NCBI GenBank assembly: GCA_964648715.1
Contig: CAZYNM010000008.1
Coordinates: 1 to 57,944, forward strand
DNA: 57,944 nucleotides
Reading direction: 5' to 3'
Source: an uncultured Pseudomonadales bacterium
Lineage (GTDB): Bacteria; Patescibacteriota; Microgenomatia; UBA1400; PJMF01
A program made the position numbers and the translations under genes. The notes beneath the pieces are model-generated. The model was given only the letters and a program-made list of their open reading frames with translations. It did no database searches and was not told where the DNA came from. Numbering within the stretch: position 1 is the stretch's first letter; the number at the start of each line of letters is the position of its first letter. Below, one piece after another: positions 40,645-57,431 of this stretch.

Positions 40645-40717
40645 GGGCCCGTAGCTCATCTGGTAGAGCGCTGCATTCGCATTGCAGAGGCGGTCGGTTC
40701 GAGTCCGATCGGGTCCA
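40645..40717 (+). tRNA. tRNA-Ala(CGC)
   Basis: GGGCCCG/CGGGTCC acceptor with G3:U70, CTGCA-TTCGCAT-TGCAG anticodon arm, GTTCGA T-loop; CCA not encoded. Confidence 0.95.
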
Positions 40718-46160: not shown

Positions 46161-48248
46161 CTAGAGGCGAAGACCATTTTCTACAGCACTCAGAAGAGGT
46201 GAAAAGTGTCCTCGGAACCAAGCTGAAAATAGGGGGACCTGTGGTTCACCCATTTTTTGTTCTTTGCCTTTGGCACCAAGGCTAGGGTGGGCAGCCCATT
46301 CACTCAGGATACCGGGATGGAGAGCAGCAGCAGCAAGCCCGCCCATGAGAATGCTCCAGTGATCTCCGTATTTTTCCTGAATACGGGATAGTACTTCTGA
46401 AGGTAGTGCGGTGTCGGCAAAACGGGGATTGGCGGGTAAGATTGCTTCTTTGAAGAGGGGTGCTGGTTGGGAACTTCCCAGTTTCCAACAGAGTAGGGGA
46501 GTGATGCATCGTTCACTTGTTTCTGTAGTGGTAAGAGGGTGTGGTTTGAGGTTTTTGAGTCTGTCACCACTGAACTCAAGTTCTGGTGTCAGTTGATAGG
46601 AGCCATCTGAGCCATCAGGGAATCGAACCTGTATTCTATTGTGGGCGGCATCGGCGGCCCTGAGCAGAATGGTGGGAACATCTTGAGGTTCCGTATAATA
46701 CGCTTTTACCTCCAGACCATCTTGCGTTTCAACACACTCTATTTGTGCCCAATGCACGCCTGGCGTTATTGGGGGTTGATGAAGGACAGTGATCAGTTTT
46801 TCTAAAATTGTTGAGCCGGCTACCTGTGCAAGGTGCGCGGTGAATGCCTTGCGTTCAAGACCTTCTCCATACGTTTGCGCATGTGTGTATGTCACTGTGT
46901 TTGCGGGGGTATGGCAAGCTGCTAAATAACTGATAAGTTGAAATAAACTGTACTCGACGCTAATCGACTTTGAATAAGCACTCTGTGCATCATTGAGGGC
47001 AGTCAACCAATCACGCTTTTCATGTTGAAACTCCGACCAGCCGGGTATCTGATCATGCAGCTCGAGTATTTCAGTTTTTTCATCAACCCAATCAGCCTTG
47101 GTGAATGTAGGGATATCCGCTAGATTCCCATAGGAAGTTCCAGTACTGGGTGCTACAGCATGCAGCAGTCTCAACAAACCTACAGAATAGACCGGTGCAA
47201 ATACGAGGAGTCCGTATTGTTCGCCTGTTGAAGTGGTAATAACTTCTACACGAGGAGGGGCCTCTTGTGCCGCTACACGTATGTGTTCTAGGGCAGCGCG
47301 TTGGGAACCTTGGCGAGACAGTTTGAGTGCACTCTGATCTTTTTGCTCTAGAGCACAGGGTACTATGATATGAATGCCGTCTCCCTGGAGGGAAGTGATG
47401 GTCAGGTGAGTAGGGAGAGTGAGCTGTGGTGCACGAACTCGTTCTTGTTCAGTGATGAGTGGTGCCAGGAAAGCCTGGAGTGTTACCTCAAATTGATTGG
47501 GAGTAGTCAACCATTGGCTAAGTCCTGGGGTAACAAATGATTCTTGTTCTAACGTTTCGAGGAACCGTTTCCCTCGGTGTGAAGGCACCGCACCACTATA
47601 GAAAGATGTGTAGGTGTGGTAGGTGTCTCTTCGAGTTGGTTTGCCCAGGATTCCCTGTAATTTTTGGCGGACATCATCAAGGAATGATTGCAGCGTACGC
47701 TTGTAGTACCACTGGTCATTGCCATCAATAGACTGTTTGTTACCACTCATGTCGCAGATCAAAAAATGCATCATATAGTCTGGCATTGATCGTATGTATG
47801 ATTCATTTCTGAAGGTGGTGACAACTTGGCGAAGCACCATGTGTGCAGTAGCGCGATCAATGATACGTTCCAGACCAAGTTCTTGTGGGGTATACATGAG
47901 GGTGAGAAAGCAGAGTAGCTGGCGTTCTTCGGGCTGAGACAGGTGTGAAAAATAGGTTGTTAGTTGGTCATAGTGTGCTTCAAGTGTTTCTTGAGCTGCA
48001 CTAAGCCATGTTGTCACGGCTTGGGTGGTTTCATCAGGCATCTTTGACCAATAGAGATCTTTCTGATGTGCTGCGGTAATCTGTGCTGCAACACGAGCAG
48101 GATTGTAGAGCTGCTGGAGTGCTTCGCGAGAAGCAAAAAATGGTGTGCTTCCTTTATTTATAAATACATTCGTAGCCAACACCGCAGAGTTTATCCATTG
48201 GAATTCTGGCAATGATGTTTGAGGTTCTTGCTCCGGAGATTTCCGCAT
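46161..48248 (-). CDS. Large hypothetical protein, possible APH/kinase-like fold centrally
   Basis: 695-aa ORF; TGCTATACT upstream. Confidence 0.6.
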   Translation of the reverse strand: MRKSPEQEPQTSLPEFQWINSAVLATNVFINKGSTPFFASREALQQLYNPARVAAQITAAHQKDLYWSKMPDETTQAVTTWLSAAQETLEAHYDQLTTYFSHLSQPEERQLLCFLTLMYTPQELGLERIIDRATAHMVLRQVVTTFRNESYIRSMPDYMMHFLICDMSGNKQSIDGNDQWYYKRTLQSFLDDVRQKLQGILGKPTRRDTYHTYTSFYSGAVPSHRGKRFLETLEQESFVTPGLSQWLTTPNQFEVTLQAFLAPLITEQERVRAPQLTLPTHLTITSLQGDGIHIIVPCALEQKDQSALKLSRQGSQRAALEHIRVAAQEAPPRVEVITTSTGEQYGLLVFAPVYSVGLLRLLHAVAPSTGTSYGNLADIPTFTKADWVDEKTEILELHDQIPGWSEFQHEKRDWLTALNDAQSAYSKSISVEYSLFQLISYLAACHTPANTVTYTHAQTYGEGLERKAFTAHLAQVAGSTILEKLITVLHQPPITPGVHWAQIECVETQDGLEVKAYYTEPQDVPTILLRAADAAHNRIQVRFPDGSDGSYQLTPELEFSGDRLKNLKPHPLTTTETSERCITPLLCWKLGSSQPAPLFKEAILPANPRFADTALPSEVLSRIQEKYGDHWSILMGGLAAAALHPGILSEWAAHPSLGAKGKEQKMGEPQVPLFSAWFRGHFSPLLSAVENGLRL

Positions 48249-48359: not shown

Positions 48360-48445
48360 GCCACTGTGGCGGAACTGGTAGACGCGTGGGTCTCAAAAAC
48401 CCATGAGCCTTAAAACTCGTGTCGGTTCGATTCCGACCAGTGGCA
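48360..48445 (+). tRNA. tRNA-Leu(CAA)
   Basis: GCCACTG/CAGTGGC acceptor, TGGGT-CTCAAAA-ACCCA anticodon arm, long variable arm; CCA not encoded. Confidence 0.95.
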
Positions 48446-48454
48446 CGTGCAGTT

Positions 48455-48904
48455 TTACTTTAAAAAATAAATCACCCCAACAATGATTATCTGAGGCAAT
48501 AACCCCAACCACATGGTGGGAATTGAGTGGTGAAAGTTGTGATGGAATTGGTTAACAGGTTTCAAAAACCATGGTTCCCATTTGAGAAAATTACGTGGTG
48601 CTTCTAGAAAATCGGGCAACAGCCCACAGAAAGCACCTATACAAATGTGGTATATGAGTGTTGTACCCAAGGTATCTTTCCAGAACCAATACACCAGCAC
48701 TGCAGTGAGTGCTAAATCAAATAATTCCAAAATAAATGCTGTCCGGCGTGTCCGGGTGCCCGCAGAAAGACCTGTACCCACATCCCAGTGTGGCATCCAA
48801 TCCTGAAGGTAATGAAACCCAAGTGCCAAGGGTATATACACCAAGGGCGTGGGGATTTTGCTTGCGATGAATGCCCCCGTTAGGGCATGTGGTATAGAAA
48901 GCAT
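48455..48904 (-). CDS. Membrane protein, YdjM-like metal-dependent hydrolase
   Basis: HALTGA, H..QD..PHWD, LPD, H..FHH. Confidence 0.6.
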   Translation of the reverse strand: MLSIPHALTGAFIASKIPTPLVYIPLALGFHYLQDWMPHWDVGTGLSAGTRTRRTAFILELFDLALTAVLVYWFWKDTLGTTLIYHICIGAFCGLLPDFLEAPRNFLKWEPWFLKPVNQFHHNFHHSIPTMWLGLLPQIIIVGVIYFLK

Positions 48905-48931: not shown

Positions 48932-49741
48932 ATGTTTCCAGAACTTCTACACGCGGGTCCCTTCGTTGTGCGTACACTGAGTGTGGCTACTGGCCTTGCA
49001 TTTTGTGTCATTAGCTTCTTATTTTGGCGTAAAGGAAGAGAAGAACACTATGAACTTGCCGAACTATTTGACAGCTATTTCGTAGCCTGGTTTTTAGGTT
49101 TCCTAGTAGCACGAGGTACGTATGTGGCACTTCATCAAGATATATTTGGTCTCAGTGTGGGTAAGTGGTTTGACATTGTCACATATCCAGGTGTTCACGG
49201 TCTCATATGCCTGCTTGTAGCAGGACTGTACCTCTTCTGGCAAGCACACGCTCAAGAATGGGATGCATATGAAGTGTTAGATTTCTTTAGTCTTGCCATT
49301 GCTCATGGCTTGAGTATTGTATTTCTTGGACAGTTTTTTGATGGAAGTGGGATGGGCACTGCTACCCAGCTTCCCGTAGGAATTGTGTTTCCCGGAGTAC
49401 AGGGTGCCCATCATCCTGTACAACTCTATCTAGCTGTAGTTTTTCTCATCATAGCCAGAGTACTAGCTAGAGTAGAGTATCGGTACCGCACCTATGAATG
49501 GTATCGAGCAGGTAAAAAAACTGCGCAGACTGGCTTTCTTGTGTCATTGTTCCTACTTTCCAGCGGTAGTGCGCTTTTTATAGTTAGCTTTTTCCGTTCT
49601 GCTGTATACTCAGTGGCGGGAATAGGTCTTGATTCTCTTCTGGCAGGAATTCTTTTTTGTGTTGGTTCATGGATGTTGTTCACTCGATCTGGACGCGGCA
49701 TGCAAAAAAAGAAAATACCCACATATGAAGCTAGCGTATAG
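48932..49741 (+). CDS. lgt: Prolipoprotein diacylglyceryl transferase-like (divergent)
   Basis: MFPELL..GPF start, HG, HPVQLY, multiple TMs; next to lspA. Confidence 0.75.
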   Translation: MFPELLHAGPFVVRTLSVATGLAFCVISFLFWRKGREEHYELAELFDSYFVAWFLGFLVARGTYVALHQDIFGLSVGKWFDIVTYPGVHGLICLLVAGLYLFWQAHAQEWDAYEVLDFFSLAIAHGLSIVFLGQFFDGSGMGTATQLPVGIVFPGVQGAHHPVQLYLAVVFLIIARVLARVEYRYRTYEWYRAGKKTAQTGFLVSLFLLSSGSALFIVSFFRSAVYSVAGIGLDSLLAGILFCVGSWMLFTRSGRGMQKKKIPTYEASV

Positions 49742-50129
49742 CACTTATTTGCTTTTCAGTGTTTTCATCGTTTTTTTTGTTGATCAGGCTAGTAAAAAGT
49801 GGGCTGATTCTCAGGGTTGGATAGTTTTGAATCCAGGAGTTTCCTTTGGTTTTCTTTCTAATGGTTCACCTGTAGTACACGTCTTTGTTGTGGCGAGTGT
49901 ACTTTGCGGTACGTGGGCGATTTTGCGGTCACAGAAGCTTCCAGCTTGGTGGTGGGGTGCACTTGGTGGTGCTGCAGTAAGCAACCTGTTTGATCGTAGT
50001 ATGTATCATGCTGTTCAAGATTGGCTACCGTTACCCTATACATCGATCACCAATAATCTGGCCGATTGGGTGATTTGCCTGTGCCTGGTTTGGCTTTGTG
50101 TGAAGGAGTATCGTACAATACGCTCATGA
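49725..50129 (+). CDS. lspA: Lipoprotein signal peptidase II
   Basis: DQASK, NPGVSFG, SNLFDR, V.DW, NLAD. Confidence 0.85.
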   Translation: MKLAYSTYLLFSVFIVFFVDQASKKWADSQGWIVLNPGVSFGFLSNGSPVVHVFVVASVLCGTWAILRSQKLPAWWWGALGGAAVSNLFDRSMYHAVQDWLPLPYTSITNNLADWVICLCLVWLCVKEYRTIRS

Positions 50130-50974
50130 TGGTTCCTGTTATTTACGAAGATGAAGATCTTATTGTTTTCAATAAACCACCGGGTTGTGTGGTCAATGAA
50201 GCTGAATCAACACACGGGGAAACCCTGCAAGCTTGGCAGAGAACTGTCCTGGACTTTTTGCAACCTGCAGAAGACTGGTTCCCTCTAGTGCCACAGAATT
50301 TCTCACTTGACTATGGTACGCCAGAAGAAATTTTCGCTGAACGAGCAGGTATGGTGCATAGACTGGATAAAGATACCAGTGGTGCCATTCTTTTTGCCAA
50401 AAATCCTGGCAGTTTAGTCAACCTGCTTGCACAGTTCCGTGATCGTACAGTTCACAAAGAATATCTTGCTTTGACTCATGGTACTTTTCAGACAGATCAC
50501 GAAGTAGTGAAGCTGCCCATTGGTCGTGCTACGGGGGAGAATAGGCAGCGGTTTCAAGTGACTGTGCAAGGACGTCCTGCAGAAACAGAGATCACTCGGG
50601 TTGGGGAATACTGTATGTCGTTTGAAGAGTTGCTTCCAGCCTTAGATGCAAGAGGAATGCGAAGAGGAAGAAGCGATGCACAGCTCGAAAAAGAGTACAG
50701 TACCTATGGCCAGTTCACCTTGGTACGCTGTCATCCAAAAACTGGAAGAACACACCAAATTAGAGTCCACTGTGCCTATTTGCAACATCCGTTGGTGTCA
50801 GATTACATGTACGGTGGGAGAAAAGTCCCTCTTGATATGTTGTGGTGTCCACGTCAGTTTCTCCATGCAGCAACCCTGCGGTGTACCCACCCACGCACAG
50901 GTGTAGTGCTGACCTTTGAAGCACCCCTCTGGGCAGATCTCGAAACTGCTCTTGGTTCACTTATCAAAACATAA
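50126..50974 (+). CDS. RluA-family pseudouridine synthase
   Basis: NKPPG, HRLDKDTSG, TGRTHQIRVH, QFLHA. Confidence 0.95.
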   Translation: MMVPVIYEDEDLIVFNKPPGCVVNEAESTHGETLQAWQRTVLDFLQPAEDWFPLVPQNFSLDYGTPEEIFAERAGMVHRLDKDTSGAILFAKNPGSLVNLLAQFRDRTVHKEYLALTHGTFQTDHEVVKLPIGRATGENRQRFQVTVQGRPAETEITRVGEYCMSFEELLPALDARGMRRGRSDAQLEKEYSTYGQFTLVRCHPKTGRTHQIRVHCAYLQHPLVSDYMYGGRKVPLDMLWCPRQFLHAATLRCTHPRTGVVLTFEAPLWADLETALGSLIKT

Positions 50975-51016
50975 CTCGCTACTTTTTTTTTGCGCATGAG
51001 TTGTGTAGCATAGAGT

Positions 51017-51640
51017 ATGGAGCAAAAATCACGCAGATTCTCCTTTCCCCAAGATCCCATTACCTATTTGTGTCCAAGTTGGGATGACCTGACCACGTAT
51101 TGTTGCGCGCTAACTGACTCGCTAGAGGGTAGTACATGTGATGTCGTGGTCAGTCTCGCCAAAGGAGGTTGGCCACTTTCTCGGATGTATGCAGATTGTG
51201 CAGGTGTGAGAGAGCTCTATAGCCTGGGTGTGAAGTTCTACACTGGCATTGATGAGCAAGCAGTTGCTCCTGTGGTGTATCAAGATATTGATCCTATTCT
51301 CATTGCGGGCAAGACAGTGCTCCTCTTTGATGATATTGCCGACTCTGGTCATTCACTCCGTTTTGCGACATCACATCTACTTTCGTTGGGAGCAAGCAAG
51401 GTTGTTTCAGTCGTGATTTATTACAAACCACGGTCTGTGGTGAAGCCAGATCACTACTGTGCAGAAACAACCGATTGGGTGATCTTTCCCTTTGAAGTGT
51501 TTGAGACGTGCCAGCAACTCAGCCAGCGATGGGCAAAACTAGGTATTCCAGAAGAGACACAGCGTGACTATCTCCTAAGGTTGGGGATAGCAGAGCAGTG
51601 GATTAGTAAGTATCAAAAGGAGGTTGACAAGCATATATGA
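51017..51640 (+). CDS. Purine phosphoribosyltransferase (Hpt/Gpt-like)
   Basis: AKGG, VLLFDDIADSGHSL, WVIFPFE. Confidence 0.85.
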   Translation: MEQKSRRFSFPQDPITYLCPSWDDLTTYCCALTDSLEGSTCDVVVSLAKGGWPLSRMYADCAGVRELYSLGVKFYTGIDEQAVAPVVYQDIDPILIAGKTVLLFDDIADSGHSLRFATSHLLSLGASKVVSVVIYYKPRSVVKPDHYCAETTDWVIFPFEVFETCQQLSQRWAKLGIPEETQRDYLLRLGIAEQWISKYQKEVDKHI

Positions 51641-51652
51641 TGCGTATACAAT
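51624..51652 (+). promoter_or_regulatory. Near-consensus sigma70 promoter for guaB leader
   Basis: TTGACA-17 nt-TACAAT. Confidence 0.8.
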
Positions 51653-51668
51653 ATATCCTATAGAAAAT

Positions 51669-51775
51669 ATGCGAGAGCACCTTCGTTGCTTTCGCTCCCA
51701 AGTAACAAAACTATTCATGTAACCTCAACATGAATAGGGAAACCAAGTAGAGCAGAAAGTAAGGGAGGTGTTTTT
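51669..51775 (+). promoter_or_regulatory. Structured guaB leader with 17-aa uORF
   Basis: 9-bp and 10-bp hairpins, alternative CACCTTC/GGAGGTG pairing before T5; uORF 51669-51722. Confidence 0.55.
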
Positions 51776-51875
51776 GTATAATATGACTAAATAATCAATC
51801 CATTCCTTGTGTTGTTTTTCTCAATTTTTCAGAAAACGTTTATTCGTATTTTGTATAAAGTAAAAAGGTACATTT

Positions 51876-53033
51876 ATGATTCATTCTATTTCAGATTTAG
51901 CACAGATCCCCATTTATCTTACCTATGACGATGTTTTGCTTAAGCCCGGTTTTTCTGACTTCTCACGTCAAGACATAACTACTAAAACACGTCTTTCTAA
52001 AAACGTATTTCTTGATCTTCCTTTGGTCGCAGCGCCAATGGATACCGTCGTTGAGGCACGATTAGCAAGTGCGCTTGCTCAGAAGGGCGGCATTGGCATC
52101 ATGCATCGCAATATGTCTATTGCAGATCAAGCTAGTCAGGTACAACAAGTCAGCAGTCAGAACCTGCAAGTAGGCGCGGCAGTAGGGTACACAGAAGGAT
52201 ATCTTGAGCGAGCATTAGCATTAGTACAAGCTAATGTAACTGTGTTACTCATTGATTCAGCCCATGGTGCATGTACTCCTATGGTAAATGCTATTCGAGA
52301 ACTCAAAAAAAACTATCCACATATTGATATTATTGCTGGAAACGTAGCTACCTATGAGGGCGCACGGGTTCTTATTGAAGCAGGTGCCGATGCAATTCGT
52401 GTAGGGATGGGTCCAGGCGCAATATGCACAACACGCATTATTTCTGGCATGGGGGTGCCACAGCTTTCAGCACTAGTTGATACTGTTCGAGCAGGTAGAG
52501 AGCACAATGTGCCAATTATTGCTGATGGTGGCATCAAGTATTCTGGAGACATGGTTAAAGCATTAGCTGTTGGTGCAGAGACAGTTATGATGGGTAGTTA
52601 CTTTGCTTCTAGTGTCGAGTCACCAGGAGAGTTGGTAACGTTGAAAGCACATGAGCTTCCTGAGAAATTTAAACATTTAATTAAACCAGGACAAAATGAA
52701 TATCACTTTAAAACATATCGTGGCATGGGATCTGAAGCGGCAATGAAGAAGGGAGCCGAAATAAAGTCAGAAGATGAGTTTCACGGTAAGCAGTATGGTA
52801 AGGATCGTGTGCTTGTGGCCGAAGGTGTGGAAGCGTTAGTACCTATCAAGGGTACTGTCGCAGAGCTAGTTGATCAGGCACTTGGTGGAATTAAATCCGG
52901 TATGTATTATGTAGGAGGAAGAACAATTGCAGAGCTTCAAGAGACTGCACAGTTCTTACGTATTACCGATGCTTCTCTTAAGGAAAGTCATCCACACAGC
53001 CTAGTTATTACAAATGCTGGAAAAAATTATTAA
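51876..53033 (+). CDS. guaB: IMP dehydrogenase/GMP reductase family, no CBS domain
   Basis: [34 protein letters not shown]. Confidence 0.9.
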
Positions 53034-53034
53034 T

Positions 53035-54933
53035 ATGCACGCAAACACTTCCAAAGTTGCTATTCTTGATGCCGGTGCTCAGTATGCCAAAGTCATAGAT
53101 CGGCGGGTACGGGAGCTTGGTGTTGAGTCAGTCCTGCTCCCTCTAAATACGCCAGCAGCACAGCTGGCTGGATATGGTGCAATCATCATCTCTGGAGGAC
53201 CACAGAGTGTCTACTCCGTTGATGCACCTGCCTATGATCGTGCCATGCTGCAACTCAAAGTTCCATTTTTAGGTATTTGTTATGGTATGCAGCTCATGGT
53301 TCATGCAAGTGGTGGTGTAGTTGAAAAAAAAGCACGTCGCGAAGATGGACCATGCAATATTTCTGTACAACCGGAAAGTGCGCTTTTTCGCGGACTTATT
53401 CCTGAGCAAATGGTTCTTATGAGCCATGGTGACAGTGTGAGTAAGCTTCCTGAGGGATATGTAGTTACTGCAGAGTCACAAGGAATTATTGCAGCCATTG
53501 AGTGTGCTGCAACTCAACGTTATGGGGTTCAATTTCACCCAGAAGTTGATCTGACTGTAAATGGTAATCGTATCATTGAAAACTTCATATGTAGTATTGC
53601 CGCTCTGCCCAGAACCTACACAGTGCATGATCGGCAAGCAAAGGCACTTGAATACATACAATCAACAGTAGGAACAGGAAAAGTCTTACTTCTAGTAAGT
53701 GGTGGCGTAGACTCAAGTGTATGCGCTGCGCTTATCCGAAAAGCATTGCCTCCAGAACAGATCATTGCTGTCCATATTGACAGTGGCATGATGCGTAAAG
53801 GTGAAAGCGCACAGGTTGCAGCGGCCTTGCGTGCTCAGGGTGTTCCACTCACGGTGATAAATGCTGCAGCAGACTTTTTTGCTGCAACGACTGTCATGCA
53901 TGGGAAAGTGATTGGTCCATTGCATACAGTCTTAGAGCCACAACATAAACGTCAAATTATTGGTGACACGTTTATCAAAGTAGTTGAGAACTACTTGCAG
54001 GAACTCAACTTGGATTTGGACACCGTATTTTTGGCGCAGGGCACGCTACGTCCAGACCTTATTGAAAGTGCATCCACACACATAAGTAGCACAGCCAGTG
54101 TTATCAAGACACATCATAATGACACTGAAATTGTCAGAGCATTGCGTGCGCGAGGACGCGTCATTGAGCCACTTGCAGAGTATCACAAAGATGAGGTCAG
54201 GGTATTAGGTGAAGAGTTGGGACTACCTCATGAAATGGTGTGGAGACAACCATTTCCTGGCCCTGGTTTGGGTATTAGAATCTTGTGTGCCACTGAGCCC
54301 TATCTTACTTCAGAATACTCAGCTATCCTTAAGAATTTACAAGTGCACGTCCCTAAGAAATATGCTGTTACTGTACTTCCGGTACGGACTGTGGGTGTAC
54401 AAGGAGATGGTAGAACATATAGCTATGTTGCAGCACTTAGCTGTGAGCGTGATGCACTGAGCTTTGCACCAGTAGAGTGGGAAGAGATTATTAATTTAGC
54501 TCGAGAACTGCCTAAGTATGTGCATCAAATTAATAGAGTTGTCTGGATGTTCGGAGCACCAGTGTCAGTGTCAGTTACCAGTATTACGCCAACGCTCCTC
54601 ACTCCTGATACCGTTGCTCAACTACAAATACCAGATGCTATTGTTTCTCAAGCAATCATACGTCACAATCTGGGCACTGTTTTGAGTCAAGTACCGGTGA
54701 TACTTGTGCCTGTGGACTGTGAAGCACCGAATCATCAAGGTGGACGTTGTATTACTATTCGTACATTTATTACCAATGACTTTATGACTGGGATACCTGC
54801 AACACCAGGTAAAGAATTGCCACTTGAAGCACTCAAAGAGATGGTAACAGAGGTGGAAGCTCAGACACCAGGAATATCTCGAGTATTATACGATCTTACG
54901 TCAAAGCCACCTGGCACTACAGAATGGGAGTAG
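53035..54933 (+). CDS. guaA: GMP synthase (long form)
   Basis: LDAGAQY, GICYG, QFHPE, SGGVDS, PFPGPGL, KPPGTTEWE. Confidence 0.97.
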   Translation: MHANTSKVAILDAGAQYAKVIDRRVRELGVESVLLPLNTPAAQLAGYGAIIISGGPQSVYSVDAPAYDRAMLQLKVPFLGICYGMQLMVHASGGVVEKKARREDGPCNISVQPESALFRGLIPEQMVLMSHGDSVSKLPEGYVVTAESQGIIAAIECAATQRYGVQFHPEVDLTVNGNRIIENFICSIAALPRTYTVHDRQAKALEYIQSTVGTGKVLLLVSGGVDSSVCAALIRKALPPEQIIAVHIDSGMMRKGESAQVAAALRAQGVPLTVINAAADFFAATTVMHGKVIGPLHTVLEPQHKRQIIGDTFIKVVENYLQELNLDLDTVFLAQGTLRPDLIESASTHISSTASVIKTHHNDTEIVRALRARGRVIEPLAEYHKDEVRVLGEELGLPHEMVWRQPFPGPGLGIRILCATEPYLTSEYSAILKNLQVHVPKKYAVTVLPVRTVGVQGDGRTYSYVAALSCERDALSFAPVEWEEIINLARELPKYVHQINRVVWMFGAPVSVSVTSITPTLLTPDTVAQLQIPDAIVSQAIIRHNLGTVLSQVPVILVPVDCEAPNHQGGRCITIRTFITNDFMTGIPATPGKELPLEALKEMVTEVEAQTPGISRVLYDLTSKPPGTTEWE

Positions 54934-54973
54934 TCCAAAAAAGGTGTAGGTATATCCCACTAGAAAAAATCAT

Positions 54974-55996
54974 ATGACAGCACATCTACCAGTTAGTTCA
55001 GAAAATATTTCTTTTTTGGAAAGTGTTGAACTTACAGAACTACATGCTCACCTGGGGGCGGCACTTTCGGCGACCGAATTGTGGGAGATGGCGCATGACC
55101 AGGGTTTGAAACTACCAACAAAAGATTATCGGCAGTTTGAACGATTAGTGAATGTTTATGAGGCCAAGGATTTTGAAGAGCAATTAAAGATATTTGATTT
55201 GACGGAAAAAATACAATCATCACCAGAGGCTATGTTCCATGCACTGCAGCATGTGATTTCTGAAGCATACAGAAAAAATAATATTACAACTCTGGAGCTA
55301 CGATTTAATCCCATTTTTCGTTGCCAAGACGGTGAACGTGATATGGATCATATTTTAGTATTTGCACTTCAAGGCATGGAGCGAGCACAGCTCAAGTATG
55401 GTGTGCGGGCCGGACTTATTTTATGTATGGATCGTCGGCTATCATTAGAAAAAAATACTGCCATCGTAAAAAAAGCAATTAAGTACAAAGACCGCGGTGT
55501 GGTAGGCATTGATTTGGCTGGTCCTGTTCTTCGCAGCGAACAAAGTCAAACATTCCGACCACGTGATATTGCACACTTGGCGGCAGAAGCACGAGCGGCA
55601 GGATTAGGAGTAACATTTCATACTGGCGAAGTAACAGGTGTCGATGAGATGTGGGAGGTAGTCAAAGAAGTACAACCAGACAGAATAGGGCATGGTATTG
55701 CCTGTGTAAAAGATGAATCACTCATGGTAGAGCTTCGTGAGAAAAATATTGTTCTTGAATTGTGTCCAAGCTCGAACATCCACACTAAAGTACTGCAAGA
55801 TTATGATGCGGTAAGAGATGTGTTTGTCCAGATTAAGAAACATGGTGTTCCCTACACAATTAATACTGACTGGCCAGCTACTTTAGGCCTTTCGCTCCGA
55901 CAGCAAATAGCACAATTATTGGAGCATAATGTAATTAACAAAGAAGATGTGTTGCAGGCTAATGCAGTTGCCGTGAATGCATCGTTCATAGAATAA
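54974..55996 (+). CDS. add: Adenosine deaminase family
   Basis: ELHAHL, HTGE, RIGHG, LCPSSN, NTD. Confidence 0.88.
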   Translation: MTAHLPVSSENISFLESVELTELHAHLGAALSATELWEMAHDQGLKLPTKDYRQFERLVNVYEAKDFEEQLKIFDLTEKIQSSPEAMFHALQHVISEAYRKNNITTLELRFNPIFRCQDGERDMDHILVFALQGMERAQLKYGVRAGLILCMDRRLSLEKNTAIVKKAIKYKDRGVVGIDLAGPVLRSEQSQTFRPRDIAHLAAEARAAGLGVTFHTGEVTGVDEMWEVVKEVQPDRIGHGIACVKDESLMVELREKNIVLELCPSSNIHTKVLQDYDAVRDVFVQIKKHGVPYTINTDWPATLGLSLRQQIAQLLEHNVINKEDVLQANAVAVNASFIE

Positions 55997-56005
55997 CCGC
56001 TCCTG

Positions 56006-56014
56006 TGGTATAGT
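56006..56014 (+). promoter_or_regulatory. Extended -10 for glyA leader
   Basis: TGGTATAGT, 6 nt before an ATG. Confidence 0.7.
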
Positions 56015-56020
56015 AGATGC

Positions 56021-56071
56021 ATGATTAAGTCACCCAACGCGTTCCAGCTTTCGTTCTCCACGTTGTTCTAG
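56021..56071 (+). CDS. Putative leader peptide MIKSPNAFQLSFSTLF
   Basis: ATG at leaderless spacing; 3' end forms the left arm of an SD-sequestering hairpin. Confidence 0.55.
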   Translation: MIKSPNAFQLSFSTLF

Positions 56072-56111
56072 ACATGAAGTATTTCATGTAGTAGAACAAT
56101 CCAGAGGAGAA
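56054..56111 (+). promoter_or_regulatory. SD-sequestering hairpin upstream of glyA
   Basis: TTCTCC/GGAGAA, TTGTTCTA/TAGAACAA and ACATGAA/TTCATGT nested stems. Confidence 0.65.
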
Positions 56112-56117
56112 TTATTC

Positions 56118-57431
56118 ATGTCAGATAGTATTTTTTCAATAATACGTAAAGAAGAACAGCGTCAGATTAATAAAATTGGGCTGATTCCTTCAGAAAATAA
56201 CACATCACCTGCAGTCTCAGCAGTGTTGTCATCATGCCTTTCTAATAAATATGCAGAAGGCTATCCAGGCAGACGTTACTATGAAGGCAACCAATTTGTT
56301 GATGAAGTAGAAATAGCAGCTATTGAGCGCGTCAAGAAATTGTTTGGGGTCCCGTACGTTAACGTCCAGCCGTACTCTGGCAGTCCAGCAAATTTTGCTA
56401 TTTATTTTGCCTTAATGAAACCAGGTGAAACACTCATGGGCCTCAAGTTGTCTATGGGTGGTCATTTAACCCATGGGCACCCTGATGTGACAGCATCAGG
56501 TCGTTTTTACACCTCGGTCCAGTATGGTGTACGGGAAGACGCTCGTATTGACTTTGACCAGGTAGAAGAGCTGGCAAAAAAACACAAACCAAAAGTGATT
56601 GTGGCAGGAAACACGGCTTATCCTTTTGAACTAGATTTCAAAAAGTTCCGTAAAATTGCTGATGCTGTGGGTGCGTGGTTAGTTGCTGACATCTCTCACG
56701 TAACTGGCTTGGTGATTGGGGGAGAGCATGTGAGTCCTGTGCCGTATGCTGATGTCATCATGTCAACTACCCACAAGACATTCCGTGGCCCACGTGGCGC
56801 CATGATTCTGGTCACTGAACGTGGACTTAAAAAAGATCCAGATCTGGGAAAGAAAATTGATGCTGCTATTATACCGGGCTTACAAGGTGGGCCACACAAT
56901 GCCACCAGTGCCGGTATTGCTATTGCAGCAGCAGAAGCCGCAACACCCAAGTTTAAGAAGTACGTACACCAGATTCGGCTCAATGCCGATGCACTGGCAG
57001 ATGAACTGAAGAAGCAAGGACTTACATTGGTAGGTGATGGTACAGAGACCCACCTTATGGTGGTTGATCTCACGCCGTTTGGCATTGGGCTTGGTACCCA
57101 AGTAGCATTTGCCCTTGATGTGGCTGGTATCTATGCCAACAGAAATACCGTGCCTACAGAAAAAGGTTCGCCATTTTATCCATCAGGATTACGTGTGGGT
57201 ACACCTCTGGTGACAACCCGTGGCATGAAAGAAAAAGAAATGCGTGCTATTGCACGATGGATAGCGCAAGTTGCCAAACATGTGGCACAAGAGCAGCTTC
57301 CTACAGATGCCAAAGAGCGTCAAGCATTTTTGAAAGCATTCCGGCTCAAAGCCGCTAAAGACAAAGTGCTTTTGCAGATTGCCCGTGAAGTTAAAGCGAT
57401 GGCGAGTACATTTCCTCTCTTTAAGGGGTAG
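56118..57431 (+). CDS. glyA: Serine hydroxymethyltransferase
   Basis: LIPSEN, NKYAEGYPG.RYY, GGHLTHG, TTHKTFRGPRG. Confidence 0.98.
   Translation: MSDSIFSIIRKEEQRQINKIGLIPSENNTSPAVSAVLSSCLSNKYAEGYPGRRYYEGNQFVDEVEIAAIERVKKLFGVPYVNVQPYSGSPANFAIYFALMKPGETLMGLKLSMGGHLTHGHPDVTASGRFYTSVQYGVREDARIDFDQVEELAKKHKPKVIVAGNTAYPFELDFKKFRKIADAVGAWLVADISHVTGLVIGGEHVSPVPYADVIMSTTHKTFRGPRGAMILVTERGLKKDPDLGKKIDAAIIPGLQGGPHNATSAGIAIAAAEAATPKFKKYVHQIRLNADALADELKKQGLTLVGDGTETHLMVVDLTPFGIGLGTQVAFALDVAGIYANRNTVPTEKGSPFYPSGLRVGTPLVTTRGMKEKEMRAIARWIAQVAKHVAQEQLPTDAKERQAFLKAFRLKAAKDKVLLQIAREVKAMASTFPLFKG

Follow-up and report, generated by a model that had tools for sequence, protein, structure and literature searches.

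A conserved leader RNA upstream of guaB-guaA-add-glyA as a candidate riboswitch-like attenuator of nucleotide salvage in Patescibacteria

The guaB leader and its alternative folds

We analysed the leader of a purine operon on contig CAZYNM010000008.1 (assembly GCA_964648715.1), a stretch of 57,944 nucleotides that is referred to here in its full length as the window, and which was deposited as an uncultured Pseudomonadales bacterium and placed by GTDB in the Patescibacteriota. On the forward strand, a gene for a purine-type phosphoribosyltransferase (PRT; 51017-51640) is followed by a 235-nt intergenic region, and then by guaB (51876-53033; 385 aa, with no CBS domain), guaA (53014-54933), add (54974-55996) and glyA (56118-57431). 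These genes were identified with Pfam and NCBIfam, and the last four make up the controlled operon guaB-guaA-add-glyA (51876-57431). A promoter matching 11 of 12 consensus positions (51624-51652; -35 TTGACA at 51624-29, a 17-nt spacer and -10 TACAAT at 51647-52) overlaps the stop codon of the PRT gene with its -35 element. It was the only promoter-like site called by a promoter scan within 51000-52500, and the transcript is predicted to start at ∼51659-61. The conserved RNA motif with which we are concerned spans 51663-51785 and is the sole match within the 57.9-kb window to the covariance models described below (98.6 bits with model R1, 87 bits with model R2). An AT-rich spacer (51786-51875), which is not conserved and measures roughly 0-150 nt in relatives, separates the motif from the guaB start codon.

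A sequence-only reading of this region had proposed a switch-like structured leader that resembles no purine riboswitch. It listed the promoter, a hairpin (hairpin A), complementarity of CACCTTC (51678-84) to GGAGGTG (51764-70) with T5 next at 51771-75, a 10-bp hairpin, three AAGTA motifs, an upstream open reading frame (uORF) and a TATAAT, and all of these are indeed present at the positions given here. The minimum-energy fold of 51655-51880 (-61.5 kcal/mol) was well below that of shuffled sequences (-37.9 ± 4.2 kcal/mol; z = -5.6, with 0 of 200 as good) and forms a single extended hairpin. Its outer helix, P1, pairs 51668-51684 with 51764-51780, and an inner helix, P1b, pairs 51686-51697 (UUGCUUUCGCUC) with 51750-51762 (GAGC, a bulged A and then GAAAGUAA). 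The 3′ strand of P1, GGAGGUGUUUUUGUAUA, takes in the U-run at 51771-75 and lies at the base of what resembles a terminator hairpin. Together, P1 and P1b enclose an internal loop with conserved sides of 13 nt (J1, CCAAGUAACAAAA, 51698-51710) and 12 nt (J2, GGAAACCAAGUA, 51738-51749), as well as the variable hairpin P2 (51711-51737), which in the window has a perfect 10-bp stem (51711-20/51728-37) and a 7-nt loop. As for the AAGTA motifs, which start at 51700, 51745 and 51757, two proved to be part of the two invariant CCAAG core elements of the RNA, while the third is just the 3′ strand of P1b.

Hairpin A (51671-51695; -13.1 kcal/mol), the putative antiterminator, is built from a 5′ arm, GCGAGAGC (51671-78), a loop (51679-87) and a 3′ arm at 51688-95 that pairs with GCGAGAGC and is listed both as GCTTTCGC and as GCUUUCGC. 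The 5′ strand of P1 overlaps the 5′ arm and loop of this hairpin, and the 5′ strand of P1b overlaps its 3′ arm. Since hairpin A uses their 5′ strands, it excludes both P1 and P1b. The competition is broader than the sequence-only reading had noted, as it involves pairing of all of 51668-97, the region of the 5′ arm, with 51750-80. In stepwise folding of the window transcript, the minimum-energy structure contained hairpin A when the RNA ended at 51756 (-24.7 kcal/mol) and P1b when it ended at 51763 (-26.5 kcal/mol). Once P1 could form, the terminator fold was ahead by ∼16 kcal/mol (-45.7 vs -29.7 kcal/mol).

Recurrence, conservation and covariation of the motif

A blastn and regular-expression scan with the leader revealed homologues in 4 of 80 guaB loci (L003, L004, L008 and L001; loci carry L numbers throughout), and these four and the window provided the five sequences of a first covariance model. 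When this model was run on contigs from a metagenome collection retrieved via a core pattern, 30 further matches were obtained (31-99 bits). What else the pattern had retrieved was for the most part a single human-gut sequence that recurred, and none of it scored. With the covariance models overall there were 35 matches of at least 50 bits and none between ∼20 and ∼50 bits, a gap that clearly sets the family apart. To avoid pattern bias, the contigs of adenosine-deaminase homologues were fetched and scanned with the model, which detected the motif in the loci of 6 of the 10 proteins looked up and added 7 more instances. The family thereby comes to 42 distinct instances on Patescibacteria-type genome and metagenome contigs, 14 of them found without any sequence pattern, and pairwise identity among the first 35 averages 64% with a minimum of 46%. 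Its distribution among guaB sources is patchy (5 of 81), and screening the 80 guaB loci with R2, an improved model, added no copies of greater divergence. A second core pattern gave 9 matches on viral contigs, all of which were coding sequence with neither hairpin A nor a U-run and scored at most 21.5 bits; these were rejected and double as a negative control.

The closest relatives of the window's guaB and add come from Patescibacteria metagenome-assembled genomes (MAGs) labelled Levybacteria, Roizmanbacteria, Gottesmanbacteria, Paceibacterota and similar, which identifies the window as a contig of the candidate phyla radiation (CPR), in line with the sequence-only reading. Dozens of third-party annotation MAG records titled 'uncultured Gammaproteobacteria' or 'uncultured Pseudomonadales' (L003, L005, L006 and others), and one titled 'Limisphaerales' (L001), have gene neighbourhoods like those of CPR bacteria. 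The guaB genes in such records are 60-80% identical to Levybacteria- and Patescibacteria-type genes, and their titles look unreliable.

The consensus reads 5′-GCGArrGCACC, a variable loop, GCUUUCGC-UCCCAAGnnAC(r)A and the variable P2 in its 5′ part, and (r)GrAnACCAAGy(n)GAGC-n-GAAAGy, a linker of 3-14 nt and GGUGUyUUU with a U run in its 3′ part. In the alignment of 42 sequences, 91.0% of cells are paired in the long-range fold, vs 48-58% in controls in which the pairing was slid; both partners vary in 21 of its 25 pairs, and none of 500 alignments with shuffled columns equalled it on any of five measures. P1 is paired in 97.8% of cells, with 7 of 9 pairs changing on both sides (pair 16-166 in alignment numbering, for example, is AU in 14, GC in 11 and GU in 10 sequences). 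All 7 modelled pairs of P2 covary, and this hairpin varies in length and sequence across instances. The outer P1b helix, GCUC/GAGC, is paired in 100% of cells and seemed invariant in the pattern-derived set; AUUC/GAAU takes its place in two independently found loci (L213 and L214), in which the sequence of P1 is entirely different too. As G-U pairs are far more frequent than A-C mismatches (138 vs 17), the structure belongs to the RNA of the sense strand. Used alone, RNAfold predicted this architecture as the structure of lowest energy in nearly all instances. The stability of the window fold and its recurrence with covariation in 41 other loci show that the structure exceeds chance, and the idea of a switch-like structured leader is supported.

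The two sides of the internal loop, UCCcAAG..AC in J1 and G.A.ACCAag followed by GA in J2, are invariant or nearly so in all 42 instances, including the 14 that were found independently of the pattern. About 20 near-invariant unpaired nucleotides are in this way concentrated in one internal loop, and this holds in the 14 pattern-independent sequences. We dropped a resemblance of J1 in some instances to the B. subtilis PurBox (AACGAAC), since the window and half of the family do not have the G and the evidence is for an RNA. Directly 3′ of P1, a U-run of at least 5 nt (median 7; U5-U9) is present in 41 of 42 instances, and the exception is cut by the end of its contig. A stable stem followed by a U-run, the hallmark of an intrinsic (Rho-independent) terminator, is accordingly shared by the family, and transcription is predicted to terminate there.

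Hairpin A folds in essentially all of the 35 instances tested (mean -11.2 kcal/mol) and is paired in 93% of cells, with compensatory changes such as GC 21, AU 5 and GU 5 at pair 17-33 and GC 30 and AU 2 at pair 11-40. In second copies of tandem arrangements, GCAAAG/CUUUGC replaces GCGAAG/CUUUCGC. Two nucleotides for which hairpin A, and not the long-range fold, offers a pairing partner are also conserved, namely G9 (33 of the 35 instances) and C10 (32 of 35). The loop is variable in length and sequence, except for the ACC that pairs in P1. In transcripts ending before the 3′ strand of P1, the hairpin-A and P1b states differed by no more than 3 kcal/mol in 29 of 35 instances, with a median of ∼1.2 kcal/mol favouring hairpin A and three outliers that are alignment artefacts. 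Hairpin A, P1b and P1 are arranged as in a terminator/antiterminator switch under kinetic control, and the predicted structures are mutually exclusive, as in the expression platform of a riboswitch.

No match at the gathering score was found when the whole window was searched with all 4227 models of Rfam 15. At E ≤ 10, the leader (with permissive filters) and 14 other instances gave only inconsistent sub-threshold matches, to CRISPR-DR10, to miRNA models and, on the minus strand, to tfoR. All were treated as chance, including the CRISPR-DR10 matches over the core in L178 and L004 (26.7 and 14.1 bits vs a gathering score of 39). Specifically, neither the purine riboswitch (RF00167) nor the xanthine-II, guanine-II, 2′-dG and 8-oxoG variants matched at E ≤ 10 in the leader of the window, 12 other motif loci, L004 and L213. 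Rfam also offered no grounds for placing the element in the ZTP/pfl class, the ykkC subtypes (PRPP, ppGpp, NDP), THF-I, THF-II/folE, NMT1/xanthine, preQ1, c-di-GMP or 2′-dG-II. The earlier statement that the leader matches no purine riboswitch is therefore borne out, and extends to other Rfam classes. In the one full-text library searched, subscription-only papers excepted, we found no description of the motif or of any CPR riboswitch candidate.

Genomic context and downstream genes

A same-strand open reading frame (ORF) starts within ∼150 nt 3′ of every instance for which downstream sequence is available, often less than 40 nt away. Depending on the locus, the element precedes guaB-guaA, add-guaB-guaA or PRT-add-guaB-guaA; in L003, L004 and L008 it is found ∼1.1 kb upstream of guaB, 5′ of add-guaB-guaA. 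Because the 5′-end position is kept though the gene order differs, the element tracks the 5′ end of the operon and not one gene, and its suspected tie to purine genes holds irrespective of their order. Genes upstream of the motif are unrelated or divergent across loci. Promoter-like sites (at least 9 of 12 positions) were found within 70 nt upstream in 13 of 35 instances, vs 5% of background windows; in L003 and L008, as in the window, 18-20 nt separate the -10 of such a site from the first G of hairpin A. In addition, GTTTAATAC recurs ∼25 nt upstream of the motif. The form (T)GTTTAATA(C) occurs ∼25-35 nt upstream in L001, L004, L082, L108, L128, L133, L159/L099, L163, L178 and L196, at the expected -10 position, and is missed by a standard TATAAT scan; it may be a preferred -10 or extended -10 form in these Patescibacteria.

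Several leaders carry more than one copy of the element. Two complete copies lie ∼20 nt apart in L099 and L159 and ∼200-300 nt apart in L109 and L198, and L216 has two copies, one before each of two adjacent operons. Tandem complete switches are a known riboswitch arrangement (PMC9481103).

The downstream genes include guaB, guaA, add, PRTs of the xanthine, hypoxanthine and adenine types and a UPRT-like protein, together with glyA (at least 12 loci), folD and an nfo-like apurinic/apyrimidinic endonuclease. IU-nucleoside hydrolase, deoxynucleoside kinase (dNK), a SLOG/LOG-like protein, DUF488, a Vut_1/YhhQ transporter, a GNAT, a number of unannotated proteins with HD motifs and an unannotated ∼260-aa family complete the set. 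This is a regulon of nucleotide salvage and one-carbon metabolism, and the motif has what is expected of a riboswitch at this level, that is, a covarying structured 5′-leader RNA upstream of functionally related genes.

The proteins of this ∼260-aa family (∼255-315 aa) are among the commonest genes directly 3′ of the motif, as the first or second ORF (L114, L168, L099, L128, L189, L087, L143 and L108), and share (A/S)SD(V/I) and NPGF-L-E motifs. Their only Pfam signal was a weak Maf match (E = 0.008); no PDB sequence matched, and a word index returned just 2 database relatives. They may be divergent Maf/ITPase-like nucleotide pyrophosphatases. Several unrelated, unannotated proteins of 330-450 aa with HD...GK or HHDD-type motifs are found as the first gene 3′ of the motif or within CPR purine-salvage clusters (L109, L119, L158, L140, L145, L198, L133, L216 282-1502, L210 11323-12435, L218 7794-8996 and L221 1288-2496), and are probably HD-domain nucleotide phosphohydrolases missed by Pfam. 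Two homologous PRT/add-guaB operons that lack the motif have leaders (L217 2963-3197 and L218 2860-3052) with two other strong hairpins with U-runs each, which may represent a different attenuator for the same genes.

A homologue of the PRT encoded upstream of the element in the window is the first gene 3′ of the motif in L210, L213, L214 and L216. Between window positions 48932-51640 and L213 positions 44-2418, the order LGT - pseudouridine synthase - PRT is kept and the motif is relocated. It is 5′ of the PRT gene in these four loci and 3′ of it in the window, where add is shifted behind guaA, and we read this as a local operon rearrangement around the element. The IMP dehydrogenase of the window is a short form (385 aa) without the CBS (Bateman) subdomain, and several related loci (L003, L133, L210 and L217) encode a second paralogue of this family. 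GuaA of the window (53014-54933) has 639 aa, ∼120 aa beyond the 512-position GMP synthase model, and matches the C-terminal dimerisation domain only at residues 571-638, which implies an insertion. Long forms are also encoded in L001 (634 aa), L145 (633 aa) and L210 (643-650 aa), and forms of ∼505 aa in L003, L216, L219 and L220. Elsewhere in the window, ORFs of 695 aa (46161-48248) and 149 aa (48455-48904), both on the minus strand, have no Pfam match, and tRNA genes are located at 40645-40717 and 48360-48445.

A model of the element, its rivals and related systems

Taken together, these results make it very probable that the leader belongs to an undescribed, conserved family of cis-regulatory terminator/antiterminator RNAs. 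The comparative evidence supports a riboswitch-like interpretation, and a riboswitch-like transcription attenuator for nucleotide salvage is the best reading, in which we have reasonable confidence. The family, at ∼100-130 nt and in Patescibacteria (CPR), would then be expected to control elongation into nucleotide-salvage and one-carbon operons. As a candidate for a riboswitch class of its own the element is a strong one, and that it is a true riboswitch, with the RNA binding a metabolite directly, appears probable.

The order in which the strands emerge suggests how such an attenuator could work. Transcription would begin ∼10 nt upstream of the element, hairpin A (GCGArrGC/GCUUUCGC) would be the first structure to form, and the variable hairpin P2 would follow. 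The emerging 3′ strand GAGC-n-GAAAG could then displace hairpin A to give P1b, closing the conserved internal loop in which UCCCAAGnnAC is opposite GrAnACCAAGy. Displacement of hairpin A would leave GAAGGCACC free to pair with GGUGUCUUU in P1, and because a U-run lies directly 3′ of P1, the extended hairpin would act as an intrinsic terminator. An effector bound in the closed internal loop may tip the near-isoenergetic choice between hairpin A and P1b towards the terminator; as effector binding would favour the terminator, this would be an OFF switch with a terminator-embedded aptamer. The effector-bound state is most simply the P1b/P1 conformer, since P1b has to close the internal loop for the invariant nucleotides to come opposite one another, and since the loop of hairpin A is variable. 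The effector may be a small purine-related metabolite (a base of the guanine, hypoxanthine or xanthine type, or a nucleoside or nucleotide), although a purine-related ligand is a guess from gene content. An OFF switch responding to a guanine-type purine is thus put forward tentatively.

A number of observations weigh against this reading. At full length, the terminator fold has an advantage of ∼15-20 kcal/mol over the hairpin-A state, and termination could for that reason be the default, with the effector preventing it. The predicted terminator is atypical in that its stem encloses ∼90 nt, a consensus terminator scan made no call, and the U-run of the window is only 5 nt long. The invariant core nucleotides show no variation from which their pairing or a tertiary role could be read by covariation. 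Moreover, the pattern used to retrieve 28 of the 42 instances demanded part of the core, so that their invariance at the positions concerned is partly by construction, a bias which the 14 pattern-independent instances answer only in part. Finally, the regulon also contains genes without an obvious purine logic, such as nfo and GNAT.

The first of these points leads to the same switch working in the ON direction, in which transcripts would terminate by default unless a metabolite stabilised hairpin A or kept P1b and P1 from being completed; candidates are PRPP, adenine or adenosine, hypoxanthine or inosine, and IMP. Both the adenine riboswitch of Vibrio add and the PRPP riboswitch act as ON switches, and substrate induction would be sensible for add, PRTs and guaB, which consume adenosine, hypoxanthine and PRPP. 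The terminator-embedded HMP-PP riboswitch is likewise an ON switch (PMC6478431), and the dominance of the terminator fold in the window (-45.7 vs -29.7 kcal/mol) agrees with such a direction. However, the loop of hairpin A is variable apart from ACC, as would suit a plain competitor helix and not a binding pocket; the invariant nucleotides meet only in the loop closed by P1b, that is, in the terminator conformer; and the slight bias to hairpin A before P1 can form (∼+1.2 kcal/mol) suits a ligand that pushes towards P1b. We therefore regard the ON direction as unlikely. We assign a similarly low probability to a trans-acting RNA-binding protein, either a PyrR-like protein of the PRT fold or a dimer reading the two CCAAG elements, that would bind the internal loop and set the choice of fold by nucleotide levels. 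The two CCAAG copies do lie on opposite strands of the loop, as for a symmetric binder, PyrR and B. subtilis PurR are PRT-fold regulators, and PRT-fold neighbours are frequent (upstream in the window, and in L114, L128, L133, L168, L189, L210, L213, L214 and L216). Yet no one protein family is present in all motif loci, the neighbouring PRTs gave their best scores as xanthine, hypoxanthine or adenine PRTs, and PyrR matches are absent or far weaker (in the best case E = 4e-5 vs 4.6e-20 for xanthine PRT). No PyrR site was matched in Rfam, although a PyrR-type regulator may be encoded in the genome beyond these 58 kb. An RNA with ∼20 near-invariant unpaired positions that also occurs in tandem looks more like a metabolite aptamer.

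Two further explanations are less probable still. A pyrBI-type coupling attenuator, as raised by the sequence-only reading, would have translation of the uORF control the terminator. The uORF of the window (51669-51722, starting with ATG at 51669 and encoding MREHLRCFRSQVTKLFM) overlaps hairpin A, and its stop codon (51720-22) falls at the boundary of the P2 5′ arm and loop. It has no Shine-Dalgarno sequence upstream of its ATG, though; just 5 of the 35 instances tested have any ATG in the 5′ part, their reading frames and peptides bear no relation to one another, and changes in the length of the hairpin A loop shift the reading frame. As the uORF is not conserved, we reject this leader-peptide mechanism, which has next to no probability left. 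It is also very unlikely that the element is not a regulator of the genes behind it but a stand-alone small RNA gene with a promoter and terminator of its own, or an elaborate terminator of the upstream gene, guaB being driven in either case from the TATAAT at 51777. A promoter, a structured RNA and a U-run do resemble a small RNA gene, a terminated fragment could act in trans, and in the window 91 nt and the TATAAT follow the U-run. But the motif always has the orientation of the downstream ORF, often at less than 40 nt, which leaves no room for a promoter; the upstream genes are unrelated or divergent; and tandem copies occur inside one leader. The internal promoter suggested for the TATAAT (51777-82) did not hold up either, since its position corresponds to the tail after the terminator U-run in relatives, where it reads UAUACA or UAUUAC, and the promoter scan called no site there.

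Were the riboswitch-like attenuator confirmed, it would have wider implications. We found no description of a gene-regulation RNA of this kind for CPR/Patescibacteria in the literature searched. CPR bacteria depend on scavenged nucleotides, and the element would reveal the metabolite from which an epibiotic cell reads that its nucleotide supply is sufficient, and would link the unannotated HD-like and ∼260-aa proteins to nucleotide metabolism. We see about even chances that it represents a riboswitch class specific to CPR/Patescibacteria, with an aptamer fold whose pocket is in the internal loop of a terminator hairpin, and that it acts as a master regulator of nucleotide scavenging by sensing the purine or nucleotide pool. 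The processes so regulated in these host-fed bacteria, which have no de novo nucleotide synthesis, would be purine interconversion, PRTs, nucleoside and nucleotide hydrolases and one-carbon supply. It would then be a fresh aptamer fold for a very old ligand class, and a second, larger example of a terminator-embedded aptamer. A validated element would also be a native inducible switch for Patescibacteria genetics, for which the need has been named (PMC11665869).

Several known systems resemble the element in part. The guanine riboswitch controls xpt-pbuX-guaB-guaA in S. aureus, and shares with the present element its position, a similar operon (a purine PRT, then guaB and guaA), an intrinsic terminator and occurrence upstream of several purine salvage and transport operons per genome (PMC2858708). 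The two differ in that searches at E ≤ 10 gave no match in either sequence or structure, and in that the guanine riboswitch folds as a three-way junction with kissing loops, whereas the fold seen here is an extended hairpin with two nested helices, one large internal loop and one hairpin. The present regulon also goes beyond the guanine riboswitch type with glyA, folD, nfo and HD-like genes. The HMP-PP riboswitch (thiS motif) is, to our knowledge, the only terminator-embedded-aptamer design described. As in our element, conserved and presumably sensing nucleotides lie inside the terminator hairpin, the terminator fold is dominant, a competing helix is present, and tandem arrangements occur (PMC6478431). 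However, the HMP-PP riboswitch, with its conserved terminal loop, measures less than 50 nt and switches ON in response to a thiamin precursor, while the element described here is 100-130 nt long and has a conserved internal loop closed by the terminator helices, a separate 5′ competitor hairpin and nucleotide-metabolism genes downstream. The lack of an Rfam match and a gene context of nucleotide metabolism, not thiamin, argue against membership in that class, with which the element has only the principle of its design in common.

Comparison at the level of the regulon and of the mechanism gives a similar picture. The ZTP riboswitch (pfl motif) and the PurR regulons of B. subtilis and E. coli overlap with the present regulon in glyA, folD and purine genes, and in content the regulon is close to both PurR regulons. 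Nevertheless, the pfl model did not match the element, and PurR is a DNA-binding protein, whereas in the present case the G-U bias, the U-run and the covariation all indicate an RNA element. The PyrR-dependent pyr attenuators have in common with the element the competition of terminator and antiterminator in the leader of a nucleotide operon and the PRT-fold genes nearby; the element differs from them in having no third, anti-antiterminator structure, no match to a PyrR site, and neighbouring PRTs of the purine type. If the element is an OFF switch with a purine effector, it would be the functional counterpart of the guanine riboswitch and the PurR regulon.

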